A stretch of DNA of 64,000 nt from Escherichia coli. GTDB lineage: Bacteria > Pseudomonadota > Gammaproteobacteria > Enterobacterales > Enterobacteriaceae. The stretch lies in assembly GCF_044647545.1 (NCBI RefSeq), contig NZ_CP172818.1; one strand, written 5' to 3'. How positions within the stretch are numbered: position 1 is the first letter of the stretch; every line of letters starts with the position of its first letter. Below the pieces are notes generated by a model that made no database searches, was not told where the DNA came from, and saw only the letters and a program-made list of their open reading frames with translations. Positions 49,687 to 56,247 of the stretch are shown here, in pieces. A program made the position numbers and the translations under genes.

Positions 49687-49702
49687 GGCGTGCTTCCCCA
49701 TC

Positions 49703-49727
49703 GCCTGATGCGACGTATCAGGCCTAC
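49703..49727. repeat. REP-like palindrome between convergent dgcE and alkA
   Basis: gcctgatgcgacgtatcaggcctac; stem cctgat/atcagg; overlaps the alkA stop codon. Confidence 0.5.
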
Positions 49728-50578
49728 AATTCGGCTTCGTCTGGTTGCCAGCCTTCCGTATACCAGATATGCAACAGCGCATAAGAACGCCAGGGCTTCC
49801 AGCGTTCGGCATAACGGCGGATTTGTGCCGGTGTCATTCCCGGAAATCGCTGTTTAATCAGATAATCATCCGGCAGGAAAACATCTTTCGCCTGCCAGCC
49901 GCGCAAGGCGAAATAATTCGCCGTCCAGCGCCCGATACCCGGAAAAGTTTGAAGCGTTTTCATCGCTTGCTCTACGTCGCCCGGAATTGTCATTGATAAG
50001 GTGCCCTCCAGCGCCGCATTTGCCAGATGAATCAGTGCCTCTGCCCGTTTCAACGGCATACCTAACGCTTTTAATGCCTGCGGGTCGGCTGCAGCCAGCC
50101 GCTGAGGCGTGGGGAAGCAGACATAATCCGGAAAATCATCCAGCCGTTCGCCATAAAGCTGTGCCACTCTGGCGGTCAATTTTGCCGCCATCGCCACGCT
50201 CACCAGTTGGCCTAAAATCGCCCGCACGCCCTGCTCAAAAACATCAACACAACCAGGTAAACGCAATCCGGGCCGCGCTGCGCCTAACTCGCCCAACGCC
50301 CCATTAACAATCTGCGGGTTACATTGCAGATCAAACAGGCGGCTCATTTTCGCCAGACACTCAGCGGCAACAGGTTCTAAACCTGCACTTAAATTTATGT
50401 GCAGAGTATGGCTGGCTATATCCGGAATAGCAGTCACCACGCCGCGATATTCGCCCACCGCCAGACTACGGGCATAATAATCGTCAGCGACCGTTTCCAC
50501 ACCGTTCACCGCACGGGCGGCGAGAAATCCCAACATCCACGACCAGTCATATGGCGGCTGCCAGTTCAGGGTATACAT
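49724..50578 (-). CDS. alkA: DNA-3-methyladenine glycosylase II
   Basis: 284-aa ORF MYTLNWQPPYDWSWMLGFLAARAV...; recognised as AlkA. Confidence 0.9.
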   Translation of the reverse strand: MYTLNWQPPYDWSWMLGFLAARAVNGVETVADDYYARSLAVGEYRGVVTAIPDIASHTLHINLSAGLEPVAAECLAKMSRLFDLQCNPQIVNGALGELGAARPGLRLPGCVDVFEQGVRAILGQLVSVAMAAKLTARVAQLYGERLDDFPDYVCFPTPQRLAAADPQALKALGMPLKRAEALIHLANAALEGTLSMTIPGDVEQAMKTLQTFPGIGRWTANYFALRGWQAKDVFLPDDYLIKQRFPGMTPAQIRRYAERWKPWRSYALLHIWYTEGWQPDEAEL

Positions 50579-50630
50579 CGCATCTCCTTTTTAATCCGCT
50601 TTCAGCATAAACGTTATTCAGACGCTACGC

Positions 50631-50638
50631 TTTGCTTT
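50631..50638 (-). promoter_or_regulatory. Candidate Ada box in the alkA promoter
   Basis: Minus strand reads AAAGCAAA about 55 bp upstream of the alkA start; matches the Ada-binding motif known for alkA. Confidence 0.4.
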
Positions 50639-50711
50639 CATATTCCGGTTGTCGCGACGGCAACATTTCGCTAAAGTCTCGCCCCTTCTTCACCGGCATG
50701 GGGATTATTTC

Positions 50712-52064
50712 GTGTTTATTGGTTTTGATTACGGTACAGCAAACTGTTCAGTGGCGGTCATGCGCGACGGTAAGCCGCAATTACTGAAAATGGAAAACGA
50801 CAGCACGCTGCTGCCTTCAATGCTTTGCGCGCCAACGCGTGAAGCGGTAAGCGAATGGCTGTACCGCTATCATGATGTTCCGGCAGACGACGATGAAACG
50901 CAGGCGCTGCTGCGTCGGGCGATTCGTTATAACCGCGAAGAAGATATCGATGTTACGGCGAAAAGCGTGCAGTTCGGTCTTTCCTCACTGGCACAGTACA
51001 TTGATGATCCAGAAGAAGTGTGGTTTGTGAAATCACCAAAATCGTTCCTCGGTGCCAGCGGCTTAAAACCGCAGCAGGTAGCGCTGTTTGAGGATCTGGT
51101 CTGCGCAATGATGTTGCACATTCGCCAGCAGGCACAGGCGCAATTGCCAGAAGCGATTACCCAGGCGGTGATTGGTCGCCCGATCAACTTCCAGGGGCTG
51201 GGCGGCGATGAAGCAAACGCCCAGGCACAAGGGATTCTGGAGCGCGCAGCGAAGCGTGCCGGGTTTAAGGACGTGGTATTCCAGTACGAGCCGGTGGCGG
51301 CTGGGCTGGATTACGAAGCCACCTTGCAGGAAGAAAAACGGGTGCTGGTGGTGGATATTGGTGGTGGTACGACTGACTGTTCTTTACTGCTAATGGGGCC
51401 ACAGTGGCGTTCGCGCCTCGATCGTGAAGCCAGCCTGCTGGGTCACAGTGGTTGCCGTATTGGCGGTAACGATCTGGATATCGCACTGGCGTTTAAAAAC
51501 CTGATGCCGTTACTGGGCATGGGTGGCGAAACCGAAAAAGGCATCGCCCTGCCGATTCTGCCGTGGTGGAATGCGGTTGCCATCAACGACGTCCCTGCGC
51601 AAAGTGATTTCTACAGTAGTGCCAATGGTCGTCTGCTTAACGATCTGGTACGCGATGCCCGCGAACCGGAAAAAGTGGCCCTGTTACAGAAAGTCTGGCG
51701 TCAGCGTTTAAGCTATCGCCTGGTGCGCAGCGCGGAAGAGAGCAAAATCGCCCTTTCCAGCGCAGCGGAAACCCGCGCATCGCTGCCGTTTATCAGCGAT
51801 GAACTGGCAACGCTGATTAGCCAACAGGGGCTGGAAAACGCCCTCAGTCAGCCGCTGGCGCGAATTCTGGAACAGGTGCAACTGGCGCTGGATAACGCCC
51901 AGGAAAAACCGGATGTCATCTATCTGACTGGTGGTAGCGCCCGATCGCCGCTGATTAAAAAAGCGCTGGCAGAACAGTTGCCGGGCATTCCGATTGCAGG
52001 CGGCGATGACTTTGGCTCCGTCACCGCCGGGCTGGCACGCTGGGCGGAAGTGGTATTTCGTTAA
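50712..52064 (+). CDS. yegD: Hsp70-family (actin-like ATPase) protein YegD, 450 aa, GTG start
   Basis: ORF 50649-52064; start placed at GTG 50712 (FIGFDYGTANCSVAV) to match known length; Hsp70 ATPase motifs (DIGGGTTD). Confidence 0.85.
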   Translation: MFIGFDYGTANCSVAVMRDGKPQLLKMENDSTLLPSMLCAPTREAVSEWLYRYHDVPADDDETQALLRRAIRYNREEDIDVTAKSVQFGLSSLAQYIDDPEEVWFVKSPKSFLGASGLKPQQVALFEDLVCAMMLHIRQQAQAQLPEAITQAVIGRPINFQGLGGDEANAQAQGILERAAKRAGFKDVVFQYEPVAAGLDYEATLQEEKRVLVVDIGGGTTDCSLLLMGPQWRSRLDREASLLGHSGCRIGGNDLDIALAFKNLMPLLGMGGETEKGIALPILPWWNAVAINDVPAQSDFYSSANGRLLNDLVRDAREPEKVALLQKVWRQRLSYRLVRSAEESKIALSSAAETRASLPFISDELATLISQQGLENALSQPLARILEQVQLALDNAQEKPDVIYLTGGSARSPLIKKALAEQLPGIPIAGGDDFGSVTAGLARWAEVVFR

Positions 52065-52073
52065 TTGAAAAAT

Positions 52074-52117
52074 GGCTCAGCAGCGGCTTAAATCAGCCTG
52101 CGCCTGAGCCAGTTTTT
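52074..52117 (+). terminator. Candidate yegD terminator embedded in the 3' end of convergent yegI
   Basis: Stem ggctcag/ctgagcc (52074-52110) followed by agtttttc; yegD and yegI stops are only 12 bp apart. Confidence 0.4.
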
Positions 52118-54017
52118 CTGCCGCCTGACGTAACGGTTCCATCAACGGCATGGTCCGTGCTGGAGCTTGAAGGCGGAATCGCTGCAACTCTGTCGCGCCG
52201 ACAGTCAACGTCGATTCCAGCCGATGTCGTTTGGCGGCCATTTTAGTCAGTACCGCTTGTCTGTCTGCAGGCGTTACCGCTTCGTTCGGCCTGAAAACAA
52301 AACGGCGTTCGCAACTCGCTTTCCAGTCGATAACCGCCTGGGTCAGATGATCACCAAAACCTTTTACTTGCTTAACGCTCCGTCGGGTAACGTCTGCCGC
52401 CGTTTCAATACCAAAGGACCGTAACGCCGCTTTACGCGCAGGGCCAACGCCGGGAATAGAGGCAACATCAATAAAAAATCCCTCCAGAAACTTCTGCTTC
52501 TGCCGTTCCCTTGCGGTGTCCTGAAGTGCTGCCAGATCGCGCTTTTCTTCTTCCGGTAACCCAAGAATTTCGTCCTTCATTTTTTCGAGCATCGTCCGTT
52601 TGGCGATAAAACCTTCCAGCCCGCCCAACTGTTGGATCTGGCTGACTAAATGGTCATAGTCCATTTTTGCGCGATTAAAAGCCTCTCTTCGTTGCTGGAT
52701 TTCTGCTTTGTACGCTTTGCTTGTCAGGCTGCCAATAATCCAGATAGCCGACAGCACAGGAACCAAAATAATATAACGTGGTTCTGTCTGAAGGCCGCAA
52801 AGCAACAGCGATAACGCTGACAGTGCGATCTCAATCAGAATGATGTATTCACGCCTTAACAGGCCTAAAGGAAGCGGCCTGCCAGTCGGTTGGAAATGAT
52901 CGGGTAATGGCAGTTGCAATGCTGGCGGTGCTACTGACGCCATCACCATCGCCCAGACTTTCGCCAGCACAAAATCACCGCTGGTGGTAATGACCTCTTC
53001 GCCGAGATCAATAAAATAGATAACGCCTTGATTATCCAGAGCACACCACGGGCAGTCAGCCAAATGACCGGGATAAACATGCATTGCCGAAACGGTACAT
53101 TTCTTTAACTGTTGGCGTAGTAAATCAAGTGCCGCTACCCACGCTTTTGCCGTCGGACGCCCGGTTGCCACGCCACTTTCCGTGAATGCCTGCTGAAACA
53201 TGGCTTCAACATCGCCCGGTAACATCGACAGCGGAATAGATCGTGGCGGCGGTTTTAAACCACGTCGCTGATTATCTGACGCGTAGGCATAACGGAAATG
53301 GGCAATATCCGTCTCCAGCGCATTACCCGCATCAGAGATAAGCGGTACACCGGAATAAGGATGCCGACCACCAAACAAGACGTGAAAAATCAGCAACGCA
53401 AGGCCAAAATTATCGTGATTCGCGGTGCGTTCAAAGCCAACAAATGACGACAAGGTTTGCAGCTCTGGCGACGTAAAATGCGACACGCCCACTTCGCATA
53501 AATGCAGCGTTCCATTGGCGTTAATCTGAAAGGAGTCGCTATCAATCAACACCACTTTGCTGTCACGGCCTACCATAAAGCTGTTCTGGTTTACGTCACC
53601 CACGACGTGCCCGTGCTCGTGAATCGTAGCAAAAGATGAAGCAATATTGCGCGCAACATAGAGTAGAAAATCCCACGCACAATGAGGGTAACGTTGACGA
53701 CGATGTGCCGGGCTATAGATCATATGAATCGGTTCTTTACCAGAAACTTTTGGCATCATAAAACCGATAACCTTTCCGCCTCGTCCACCGTGAAGCGTTG
53801 CCTGCGGCCAGGCGACATAATTCAACAATTGCGCGTCAGCTGTCGCAGCCATAAAGGCAAGTTTGTCCTGTTTTAAGGCGGGTGGCGGCGTGTGATAAAT
53901 CTTGGCGACGCTATCGACAAACTCCTCGATATCATAAACCGCACCTTCGCCGCCTTTGCCCAGTTCACGGCCAGGCGTAACGCACTCACCAGTAGCAGTA
54001 TATAAAGTGGGTTTCAT
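52077..54017 (-). CDS. yegI: Hanks-type Ser/Thr protein kinase-like protein YegI (kinase-like N-domain, two predicted TM helices, C-terminal helix-hairpin-helix-like motif)
   Basis: ORF 52077-54053; start placed at [11 protein letters not shown] (Met13), alternative start at 54053; Gly-rich loop GKGGEGAVYD; HhH-like PGVGPARKAALRSFG. Confidence 0.8.
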   Translation of the reverse strand: MKPTLYTATGECVTPGRELGKGGEGAVYDIEEFVDSVAKIYHTPPPALKQDKLAFMAATADAQLLNYVAWPQATLHGGRGGKVIGFMMPKVSGKEPIHMIYSPAHRRQRYPHCAWDFLLYVARNIASSFATIHEHGHVVGDVNQNSFMVGRDSKVVLIDSDSFQINANGTLHLCEVGVSHFTSPELQTLSSFVGFERTANHDNFGLALLIFHVLFGGRHPYSGVPLISDAGNALETDIAHFRYAYASDNQRRGLKPPPRSIPLSMLPGDVEAMFQQAFTESGVATGRPTAKAWVAALDLLRQQLKKCTVSAMHVYPGHLADCPWCALDNQGVIYFIDLGEEVITTSGDFVLAKVWAMVMASVAPPALQLPLPDHFQPTGRPLPLGLLRREYIILIEIALSALSLLLCGLQTEPRYIILVPVLSAIWIIGSLTSKAYKAEIQQRREAFNRAKMDYDHLVSQIQQLGGLEGFIAKRTMLEKMKDEILGLPEEEKRDLAALQDTARERQKQKFLEGFFIDVASIPGVGPARKAALRSFGIETAADVTRRSVKQVKGFGDHLTQAVIDWKASCERRFVFRPNEAVTPADRQAVLTKMAAKRHRLESTLTVGATELQRFRLQAPARTMPLMEPLRQAAEKLAQAQADLSRC

Positions 54018-54774
54018 GGTACCACAGCGCCAGTGCCAACGTTTTATCATCATCGGTACGCTCGTTTACCGCCGGGCTGGACAAAAACTGCTTTAACAAT
54101 TCAGGTAATAAATCGAGTTGTTCCTGCGTTGCTGACGCCAGTCCATTGAAAAACGGGGTAAAGAAAGGCACATGCGGAGAATTATCCAGCATATTTAACG
54201 CCAGTCGCTGAATACCATCCGTAAATGCTGCAACTTTATGCGCACGCTCAGTACTGGTGTAAGTTTCCAGTCTGGAAACAGCATCGTCATCGGTAATGAA
54301 GTGCGTCATATTGGCATATTCCCCCACCATCGGCGTGAGCGGCAGTTGCAAACCGTGACCCAAATCTACCACCACGCCGCCATCGCCAATCTGCATAATC
54401 AAGGTGCCATTAGCTGATGAAATCAATCCCAAAAACGTGCAGGCAAAATCGCGAACCGCTAATTCTTTGGCTTCCGCCTCGGCAAAAAGTCGCTGACGAA
54501 TGGTCAGCACAATGTCCGTTGCGAGGACATCATTAAGCCCCAATTCCCCGCCCTGCACTTTTTGCGACATATAAGCCATCGCTTCATTGACGGCGAGCAT
54601 CGCACCTTCGCCACCCTGCGAGACGCTGCCTGCGCCATCAGCGACAAATACCGACAATAATGGCTGCTGGTCTTCTAACCAGGCAACCTGCATCTGGCAG
54701 GCATCCTGGCAAGACAAGTCAGCGCTGATGTGCGACGTTCCAACGGTTGATGCATAGACCAGACGCCAGCTCAC
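53986..54774 (-). CDS. pphC: PP2C-family Ser/Thr phosphatase PphC (YegK)
   Basis: 262-aa ORF; recognised as YegK; 3' end overlaps the yegI start region. Confidence 0.8.
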
Positions 54775-55430
54775 ACTGACGTCCAGCCTTTTGGCGCTTC
54801 CAGCACAACTTCCGTTCCCGGCGTGGAGCGGGAAACCGAACGCAGCGAACTGGATAACCAGCTAAACAGTTCACGGAATTGTAATCCCTGCAGTGGCAAA
54901 GGCTGACGAACGCTGATTTGTGCCAAAGTCTTCATATCCGCCCCCTGAACACCGATGGAAAAGAAGGCAAACTTCTTATCTTCTTCCCCCTGAAACACTT
55001 TGTTGGCGGCAGCCTGCCACTCATCGGTTGGAGCGCCATCGGTGATCAGGAAAATCCACGGGCGATAATAGGAAATACCATTGGCGCGATACTCACGTTT
55101 GCGCTCCTCAACCATATCCAGGGCTTTGGTAATGGCAGCGCCCATTGGTGTATCGCCCTGGGCAAACAGGATGGGCGGGAAAAAATTAGCGGCGCTGGTA
55201 AAGGGTTGTTCCACATGCACCGGGCCGAACGTCACAATACCGAGTTCCACTCTTTTTAAGGCCAGCGAATCGGCAAGCAGCTCATCGCGAAAGGTAACCA
55301 ATCCGGCGTTAAGTTCATTAATAGGTCTACCGTTCATAGAACCAGAAACATCCAGCAGCAAAATGCAGGGACAACGTGGTTCCGGGTTACTGGCAAAATC
55401 GCTGGTGGCAAACGTGATTTGTTCGCTCAT
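54771..55430 (-). CDS. yegL: von Willebrand factor A (vWA) domain protein YegL
   Basis: 219-aa ORF; MIDAS-like motif DVSGSM; overlaps pphC start (ATGA). Confidence 0.85.
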
Positions 55431-55611
55431 AAGAAATCCTTTCTTAGAGAATTATTGAGGTCCGGTATCATACCGATTGCAATAATGAAATAAGAGCAAA
55501 CGAAGAAACTTTCAGAATTAGGCCCGGCGGCGCAGAAAATTTTGCTATTCGCCTCGCAAGAACGGAGAGCCGTCGATTGACACTAAGGGCGGAGTGACAT
55601 AATTTCAGGAG

Positions 55612-55760
55612 TGAGGGTTAGGGAGAGGTTTCCCCCCTCCCCCTGGTGTTCTTAGTAAGCCTGGAAGCTAATCACTAAGAGTATCACCAGTATGATGACG
55701 TGCTTCATCATAACCCTTTCCTTATTAAAAGCCCTCTTCTCCGGGAGAGGGTTTCCCGTT
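55612..55760 (+). ncRNA. sibA: SibA antisense sRNA (type I antitoxin of ibsA); boundaries approximate
   Basis: Plus-strand promoter TTGACA 55577-55582 and -10 near 55598-55605; terminator hairpin ccctct/agaggg plus T-run at 55731-55760; fully overlaps ibsA on the opposite strand. Confidence 0.55.
55652..55711 (-). CDS. ibsA: Type I toxin IbsA, 19-aa hydrophobic peptide
   Basis: Minus-strand ORF translates to MMKHVIILVILLVISFQAY. Confidence 0.8.
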   Translation of the reverse strand: MMKHVIILVILLVISFQAY

Positions 55761-55947
55761 TCAGCGTCCCGCTGAAATCGTCGGCTTACCTCCTTTCGCC
55801 CTGAATGCAGTCTATCGCTAACGCGTGAACAAAATAGTTTCCCCTGTGATTATTGCGTAACGTCTCGCAAAGAATATTTGCTCGCAGGATCGCAGACTAC
55901 AAAGCCTGCGGATTGACAATCTGATTGTGAAGGCATACTTTCAGGAG

Positions 55948-56089
55948 TGAGGGTAGAGCGGGGTTTCCCCCGCCCTGGTAGTCTTAGTATGCTGGCCAGC
56001 TAATCACTAAGAGCACCACGATGATGATCCACTTCATCATGACCCTTTCCTTATTTAAGGCCCCTTCCTCGGGAGGGGCTTTCCCGTTT
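55948..56089 (+). ncRNA. sibB: SibB antisense sRNA (type I antitoxin of ibsB); boundaries approximate
   Basis: Second copy of the sib repeat: promoter TTGACA 55913-55918, terminator hairpin plus T-run about 56058-56089. Confidence 0.55.
55984..56040 (-). CDS. ibsB: Type I toxin IbsB, 18-aa hydrophobic peptide
   Basis: Minus-strand ORF translates to MMKWIIIVVLLVISWPAY. Confidence 0.8.
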   Translation of the reverse strand: MMKWIIIVVLLVISWPAY

Positions 56090-56247
56090 CAGCGTCCCGC
56101 TGAAATCGGCGGCCTACCTCCTTTTGCCCTGAATGCAGTCTATCGCTAACGCGTAGATAAAATAGTTTCCTGTGTTATTACTGGATGCGTGCTCGCAAAT
56201 GCGCCCGTCATTCAGACGATTCCCGACAGTGTTTCATAATTCCTCCA

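Follow-up and report, generated by a model that had tools for sequence, protein, structure and literature searches.

A probable two-way intrinsic terminator at the convergent yegD/yegI junction of Escherichia coli, encoded mostly by the end of yegI

The yegD/yegI junction

The DNA analyzed here, referred to as the window, is a 64-kb stretch (64,000 nucleotides) of an E. coli genome in which yegD and yegI converge. The TAA of yegD occupies 52062-52064 according to both direct reading and the list of open reading frames (ORFs), and the same two sources confirm the statement of an earlier note on this DNA that the stops of these convergent genes are 12 bp apart. The RefSeq annotation of an identical haplotype places the ends of both genes as the ORF list does, and gives the gene order dgcE, alkA (minus strand), yegD (plus), yegI (minus), pphC (minus), yegL (minus), ibs/sib and mdtABC. 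The genes yegL, pphC and yegI form an operon (bioRxiv 10.1101/303594). Coordinates in MG1655 are obtained by adding 2,096,962 to those of the window, which places the hairpin described below at 2,149,036-2,149,072. The features of the junction, in window coordinates, are as follows.

50712-52064, plus strand: yegD coding sequence, Hsp70/actin-family protein of 450 aa (ORF list; RefSeq annotation of the identical haplotype; Pfam HSP70, 1.6e-24)
52065-52076, no strand: spacer TTGAAAAATGGC, 12 bp, the sole non-coding DNA between yegD and yegI
52067-52073, minus strand: yegI U-tract (GAAAAAT on the plus strand, AUUUUUC on the minus strand), 3' of the hairpin in the yegI transcript
52074-52110, both strands: hairpin of 37 nt (fold energies, window scan, shuffles, recodings)
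52077-52079, minus strand: yegI stop codon UGA, which in the yegI transcript forms part of the hairpin's 3' arm (C-UGA-GCC)
52077-54017, minus strand: yegI coding sequence, Ser/Thr kinase with a helix-hairpin-helix region, 646 aa (ORF list; RefSeq annotation; published kinase characterization)
52111-52119, plus strand: yegD U-tract AGTTTTTCT, directly 3' of the hairpin and antisense to the yegI codons GAA-AAA-CTG (Glu-Lys-Leu)
53986-55430, minus strand: pphC (PP2C phosphatase) and yegL (vWA protein), upstream in the operon that ends at the hairpin

A hairpin between two U-tracts, built largely from yegI codons

RNA folding of the junction, a check proposed in the earlier note, was run and yields a 37-nt hairpin that is more stable on the minus strand (-22.9 kcal/mol, z = -4.8) than on the plus strand (-20.2 kcal/mol, z = -3.9); 0 of 200 shuffled sequences folded equally well. 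Its outer stem of 7 bp is a perfect complement between GGCTCAG (52074-52080) and CTGAGCC (52104-52110), has G-C pairs at its base and can be extended by one U-A pair (52073/52111). A 2x2 internal loop separates this stem from an inner one of 6 bp with one bulge, in which, on the plus strand, 52083-88 pairs with 52095-98 and 52100-01 around a 6-nt loop (52089-94). The stem and the AGTTTTT following it are therefore as the earlier note had described them, the sequence at 52111-52119 being AGTTTTTCT. The hairpin is longer than those of typical terminators and is interrupted by the internal loop and the bulge.

Runs of five U follow the stem directly on both strands. On the plus strand the run begins after one G, or after A-G if the additional U-A pair is not formed, and on the minus strand the tail after the hairpin reads AUUUUUCAA or AUUUUUCAAUUA; with the additional pair counted, the tails are GUUUUUCU (plus) and UUUUUCAA (minus). 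Two hallmarks of an intrinsic terminator are present, namely a stable GC-rich stem-loop and a U-rich tract directly 3' of its stem, and the layout is symmetric, with an A-tract 5' and a T-tract 3' of one hairpin between convergent genes, as in bidirectional terminators.

About 43 of the 55 nt of the element are yegI coding sequence, which supplies the whole loop, one arm and the template for one U-tract, and the last 13 yegI codons with the stop (…EKLAQAQADLSRC*) encode most of it. In the frame of the yegI mRNA the hairpin reads cuG GCU CAG GCG CAG GCU GAU UUA AGC CGC UGC UGA GCC (…L A Q A Q A D L S R C stop), such that its 5' arm consists of Ala-Gln codons and its 3' arm of the final Cys-codon base, the UGA and the three bases that come after it. 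The spacer contributes those 3 nt of stem and the A-tract, and the remainder of the spacer constitutes the yegI U-tract. Hence the earlier placement of the terminator inside yegI holds for most of the structure, but not for the three nucleotides of its plus-strand 5' arm (52074-52076) that belong to the spacer. The stem starts 8-9 nt past the yegD TAA and overlaps the last 11 yegI codons and the stop, leaving only the U-tract downstream of yegI. The earlier assignment of the hairpin to yegD is likewise supported but incomplete, because the structure is symmetric, carries the yegI stop in its stem, and is equally good or better as a terminator for yegI.

Strength of the site within the window and relative to chance

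We scanned both strands of the entire window for single hairpins of up to 45 nt that end 0-2 nt before an 8-nt stretch with at least five T; the restriction to such hairpins was imposed after folds of 60 nt that admitted multiple branches had proven too permissive. Among 97 candidates with a hairpin and a T-tract, the yegD/yegI site ranks first on the minus strand (-24.5 kcal/mol, tail TTTTTCAA) and fourth on the plus strand (-21.8 kcal/mol, tail GTTTTTCT), energies comparable to those of the asmA (-21.9) and his/wzzB (-19.3) terminators in the same scan. Chance levels were estimated from 12 dinucleotide-preserving shuffles of the 64-kb window. No site in these shuffles reached -24.5, while sites reaching -21.8 occurred at an average of 0.67 per shuffle. 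Sites qualifying on both strands at -16 or better arose 0.25 times per shuffled 64 kb, and the window holds only two of them, at the yegD/yegI and his/wzzB junctions. The top rank and the rarity in shuffles indicate a hairpin well beyond chance, positioned exactly at a convergent junction.

The next plus-strand candidate downstream of yegD, at 52197-52238, is much weaker (-14.4 kcal/mol), and the claim that the sole strong terminator-like structure past yegD lies inside the yegI coding sequence therefore stands. A built-in scan for promoter and terminator consensus sequences did not report the yegD/yegI site, because its loops are limited to 3-8 nt. No Rfam family matched 51500-52700. The 65-nt region around the element is nearly universal in E. 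coli, being present as a single copy (median of 1 place) in 5410 of 5426 complete genomes. Since it occurs once per genome and is mostly intragenic, the element is not a repeat of the REP or BIME type.

The second two-strand site provides an internal comparator. The hisIE/wzzB junction (141-164) carries GGGCAAGGTGTCACCACCCTGCCC, a bidirectional terminator of the classical type with a T-run on each strand. Like the yegD/yegI site, it is a single GC-rich palindromic hairpin with an A-run on one side and a T-run on the other, located where two convergent genes meet. However, it lies wholly in the spacer, whereas at yegD/yegI the spacer is 12 bp, the element is mostly yegI coding sequence, and the yegI stop is in the stem. 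Another convergent pair in the window, dgcE/alkA, has a 37-bp spacer (49687-49723) with a REP-like palindrome, GCCTGATGCGACGTATCAGGCCTAC, that has no T-tracts and whose fold is not significant; this pair is also in a published list of excludons (PMC12288877).

Codon choice and variation among strains

The earlier note had proposed that the end of yegI is under both coding and structural constraint. We redrew the last 20 yegI codons and the stop 2000 times according to the codon usage of the window, with the spacer and the amino acids held fixed. The real hairpin energy was reached by 0 of 2000 recodings on the minus strand, where -20 was reached by 0.35%, and by 0.1% of 2000 on the plus strand. 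The recodings average about -10 to -11 kcal/mol, and the YegI peptide alone thus gives some baseline self-complementarity. That recodings so rarely match the real energies indicates a strongly non-random choice of yegI codons and stop.

Variation was assessed in 15 distinct haplotypes, comprising 11 from E. coli together with E. whittamii, two other Escherichia species and strain E69. Hairpin and T-tract together (46 nt) contain 11 variable sites, as compared with a mean of 10.8 for all 46-nt segments of the 2.2-kb alignment, so variability is not reduced. Third codon positions of yegI within the hairpin region vary at 6 of 14 sites, versus 48% gene-wide. Eight sites of the hairpin vary among the 15 haplotypes, all at paired positions. 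No pair is altered on both sides in this set, and the 6 of 14 pairs that depart from the structure do so only through unpaired cells; 92% of cells remain paired because the sequences are close to one another. With no covariation, and with variability at the local average, the 15 haplotypes do not mark the hairpin as a conserved structured RNA. The proposed dual constraint is therefore borne out by how the sequence is built, in that the choice of codons and stop is non-random, but not by reduced variability, compensatory change or otherwise detectable purifying selection at a depth of 15 haplotypes.

Nearly all sampled E. coli haplotypes carry a hairpin near -20 kcal/mol, one E. coli haplotype being at -14. 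The hairpin is weaker in E. whittamii, at -14.6 kcal/mol and on the plus strand only, and in Escherichia sp. MOD1-EC7003 it is reduced to -7.7/-10.1 kcal/mol with both T-tracts weakened as well. Substitutions in the stem account for the weakening in all three. The spacer is the most variable stretch, with changes in 10 of its 12 columns, a length of 11 bp in some strains and a variable A-tract. Identity bands appeared to show the 65-nt region to be more conserved than the 2.2-kb region, but we do not rely on them because the variable spacer is cut off in local alignments. Strain FDAARGOS_497 matches the yegD-yegI segment at 100% identity, and most other complete genomes match it at 94-97%.

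Two further observations concern the same region. For E. coli core DNA, the yegD-yegI segment (51000-53200) is unusually diverse, with 59 of 5419 records at least 99% identical and 1778 at 90-95%. In addition, yegI is annotated as a frameshifted pseudogene in one strain.

Homologues and origin of the junction

Klebsiella, Piscinibacter, Chromobacterium and many metagenomes contain relatives of YegI at about 60% identity. Members of the family are mostly 645-652 aa long and share the C-terminal motif …(K/R)(K/R)LAQAQADLS…. In the Klebsiella, Piscinibacter and Chromobacterium genomes the cassette of vWA, PP2C and kinase genes is intact and located elsewhere, away from yegD, and the yegI homologues of these three genomes show no hairpin overlapping the stop (z of +0.4 to +1.2). 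A search of genome contigs with YegI returned Escherichia only, which limits the depth at which covariation can be assessed. A YegI fragment 98% identical to that of E. coli is encoded on a contig of 559 bp and 0.5x coverage that is labelled Streptomyces sp. A1136, almost certainly owing to contamination of that assembly.

A soil strain designated E. coli, MEI4BO-21, lacks yegI-pphC-yegL. In this strain yegD is followed by 46 nt, the sib/ibs module and mdtA. Relative to 52061-55942 of the window, homology breaks at the last yegD codons and resumes at the sib/ibs repeat. Its genes upstream are 67-80% identical to those of the window, as compared with 91% from mdtA onward, and this disparity indicates that the region is a mosaic.

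Two histories of the hairpin were considered and set aside. One is that a C-terminal extension of YegI engulfed an intergenic terminator, but the length of the family is near-constant and its C-terminal motif is the same. The other is that the hairpin is an ancestral yegD terminator; the cassette-free strain MEI4BO-21 has unrelated sequence after the yegD stop, although its yegD, at 77% identity, is too divergent to settle the matter. The most economical reading of the sequences is that the cassette directly abuts the yegD stop in Escherichia and that the hairpin was assembled there from yegI codons and a few junction bases.

A probable shared terminator and its alternatives

From the anatomy and strength of the site we infer that 52065-52119 is likely to be a compact bidirectional intrinsic (Rho-independent) terminator common to yegD and the yegL-pphC-yegI operon, and that it is probably leaky. 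A polymerase arriving from either side would transcribe the hairpin and then a U-tract. Assuming termination 7-9 nt past the stems, the yegD mRNA would end at about 52117-52120, 40-43 nt into yegI as antisense, and the yegI mRNA at about 52065-52069, in the spacer. The predicted overlap of the two mRNAs, about 50 nt, would then be the terminator itself. Read-through in either direction would be untranslated antisense RNA, which should be terminated by Rho; Rho would thus serve as a backstop. The supplementary data of three end-mapping studies (Adams 2021, TERMITe and SMRT-Cappable-seq) contained no entries for yegD, yegI or the MG1655 coordinates, and both units are weakly expressed under laboratory conditions (PMC13232886; bioRxiv 10.1101/303594).

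The expectation that the terminator is leaky derives from the positions of the two stop codons. When a terminator is located a few bp past a stop codon, the trailing ribosome represses it almost completely; full efficiency requires a distance of more than about 30 bp, and repression also affects terminators near the ends of coding regions (Li et al., NAR 2016; PMC4824070). Both the 8-9 nt between the yegD stop and the stem and the negative distance for yegI match the range over which coupled translation repressed the tR2 terminator almost fully in that study. However, tR2 was assayed in an engineered reporter, whereas yegD/yegI is a natural site at which the effect would be expected both ways at once. 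Given a stop just ahead of the stem on one strand and within it on the other, a closely trailing ribosome should hinder folding, and termination would thus be incomplete under tight translation coupling in both directions. Incomplete termination fits the listing of yegD-yegI among pairs with overlapping transcripts: it is one of 165 convergent pairs that overlap in at least 50% of 58 MG1655 transcriptomes (ExcludonFinder, 2025; Table 1, PMC12288877). This listing also substantiates the convergent transcription that the earlier note had raised.

One alternative, which we regard as unlikely, is that the hairpin functions mainly in 3'-end protection. Polymerases would run on and be stopped by Rho, and exonucleases would then trim the transcripts back to the stem-loop. 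The trimming of Rho-terminated transcripts back to stem-loops is reportedly the subject of one study (PMC6061677), which we count in favor of this possibility, together with the internal loop and bulge of the hairpin. The proximity of both stop codons to the stem, which should lead to suppression of intrinsic termination by coupled ribosomes (PMC4824070), and the overlapping transcription reported past the gene ends (PMC12288877) would also be in keeping with it. Nevertheless, protection alone would not need runs of five U right after the stem on both strands, and hairpins with such tails seldom arise in shuffles.

Less probable still is that the structure is a functionless by-product of the YegI C-terminal peptide (…KLAQAQADLS…), whose codons are self-complementary (GCN-CAG with CTG-NGC), the rest being due to chance. 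The motif is conserved in the protein among homologues of about 60% identity, the recodings retain an average energy of about -10 kcal/mol, and the hairpin shows no excess conservation or covariation and is degraded in Escherichia sp. MOD1. However, the real sequence is an extreme outlier among the recodings (0/2000 and 0.1%), its outer stem takes in the stop codon and three post-stop bases, T or A runs are present on both flanks, and homologues with the same peptide motif have no significant structure (z of +0.4 to +1.2).

Comparably improbable, in our estimation, is that the junction acts mainly through interference between convergent transcription units, a possibility raised in the earlier note, either by head-on collision of polymerases at the hairpin or by formation of double-stranded RNA that is cut by RNase III. 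It would then be an excludon, in which expression of either gene would lower that of the other. The yegD-yegI pair is in the 'excludome' list for MG1655 (PMC12288877), a collision model has been put forward for overlapping bidirectional termination sites in E. coli (bioRxiv 10.1101/2022.10.23.513370), and overproduction of YegJ strongly raises yegD mRNA (PMC13232886), which points to cross-talk at the locus. Like yegD-yegI, convergent excludons are short-spacer convergent pairs with reported overlap of transcript ends. The classical excludon, in contrast, implies a long antisense overlap and mutual repression, whereas what is reported for yegD-yegI is overlapping transcription. Moreover, the sites of the collision class are described as having no intrinsic-terminator features (bioRxiv 10.1101/2022.10.23.513370), unlike the yegD/yegI element, which resembles a canonical intrinsic terminator in both directions. 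Strong collision effects also seem unlikely because both units are weakly expressed, such that collisions should be rare. The overlap predicted if termination works is only about 50 nt and would fold intramolecularly.

We give least credence to the proposal that the terminator is a translation-gated switch between the yegD and yegL-pphC-yegI units, in which ribosomes finishing yegI would hold the hairpin open because the yegI stop is inside the stem, such that a well-translated yegL-pphC-yegI transcript would read through antisense into yegD while untranslated transcripts would terminate, with the reverse applying more weakly to yegD. Were this true, expression of a TerY-P-like kinase/phosphatase cassette would be coupled to the Hsp70-like YegD, and the switch might bear on the rise in yegD mRNA upon YegJ overproduction.

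Bidirectional terminators, terminators that overlap gene ends, repression of terminators near stop codons by ribosomes and overlapping transcription at yegD-yegI have all been described already. If the two-way intrinsic terminator favored here is confirmed, it would represent a case of genome economy, in which 12 non-coding bp and the tail of one gene end two opposing units. It would also be a caution for terminator predictors that are limited to intergenic DNA or small loops.

The yegL-pphC-yegI cassette and neighboring variation

TerY-P triads combine a TerY-like vWA protein and a PP2C phosphatase with a Ser/Thr kinase that carries a nucleic-acid-binding fusion at its C terminus, the three being encoded in an operon (PMC11090510). 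The yegL-pphC-yegI cassette (52077-55430) resembles this architecture, with Pfam matches to VWA and PP2C_2 and a sub-threshold match to HHH_5, and the kinase activity of YegI has been published (PMC13232886; bioRxiv 10.1101/303594). The order of the three genes is the same in the Klebsiella, Piscinibacter and Chromobacterium genomes, where YegI is about 60% identical and the neighbors of the cassette include defense-type genes (GmrSD, BrxR/WYL, JetB, KAP NTPase and ScoMcrA-like). PADLOC models searched against the cassette gave weak matches to the kinase domain and none to the other two proteins. A defense role for cassettes of the yegL-pphC-yegI kind is therefore only a lead.

Over 50001-63999 the window differs from FDAARGOS_497 at one position, a 1-nt deletion that converts GGTAACC to GGTACC (54015-54025). 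The deletion lies 5 nt before the pphC stop and removes the TGA that overlaps the yegI ATG. As a result, pphC runs on to 53986, across the first ~10 codons of yegI, and its product lengthens from 253 to 262 aa; either a genuine variant or a sequencing error could account for this. The window lacks yegJ (54017-54014), which K-12 carries between yegI and pphC; in the window pphC and yegI abut or overlap, an arrangement described for B strains (PMC13232886). Elsewhere in the window, the O-antigen cluster (4165-12909) differs from that of FDAARGOS_497, and the IS110 element that follows yegH in that strain (~42172) is absent. The window thus derives from a different strain, and the yegD-yegI haplotype is common to both.
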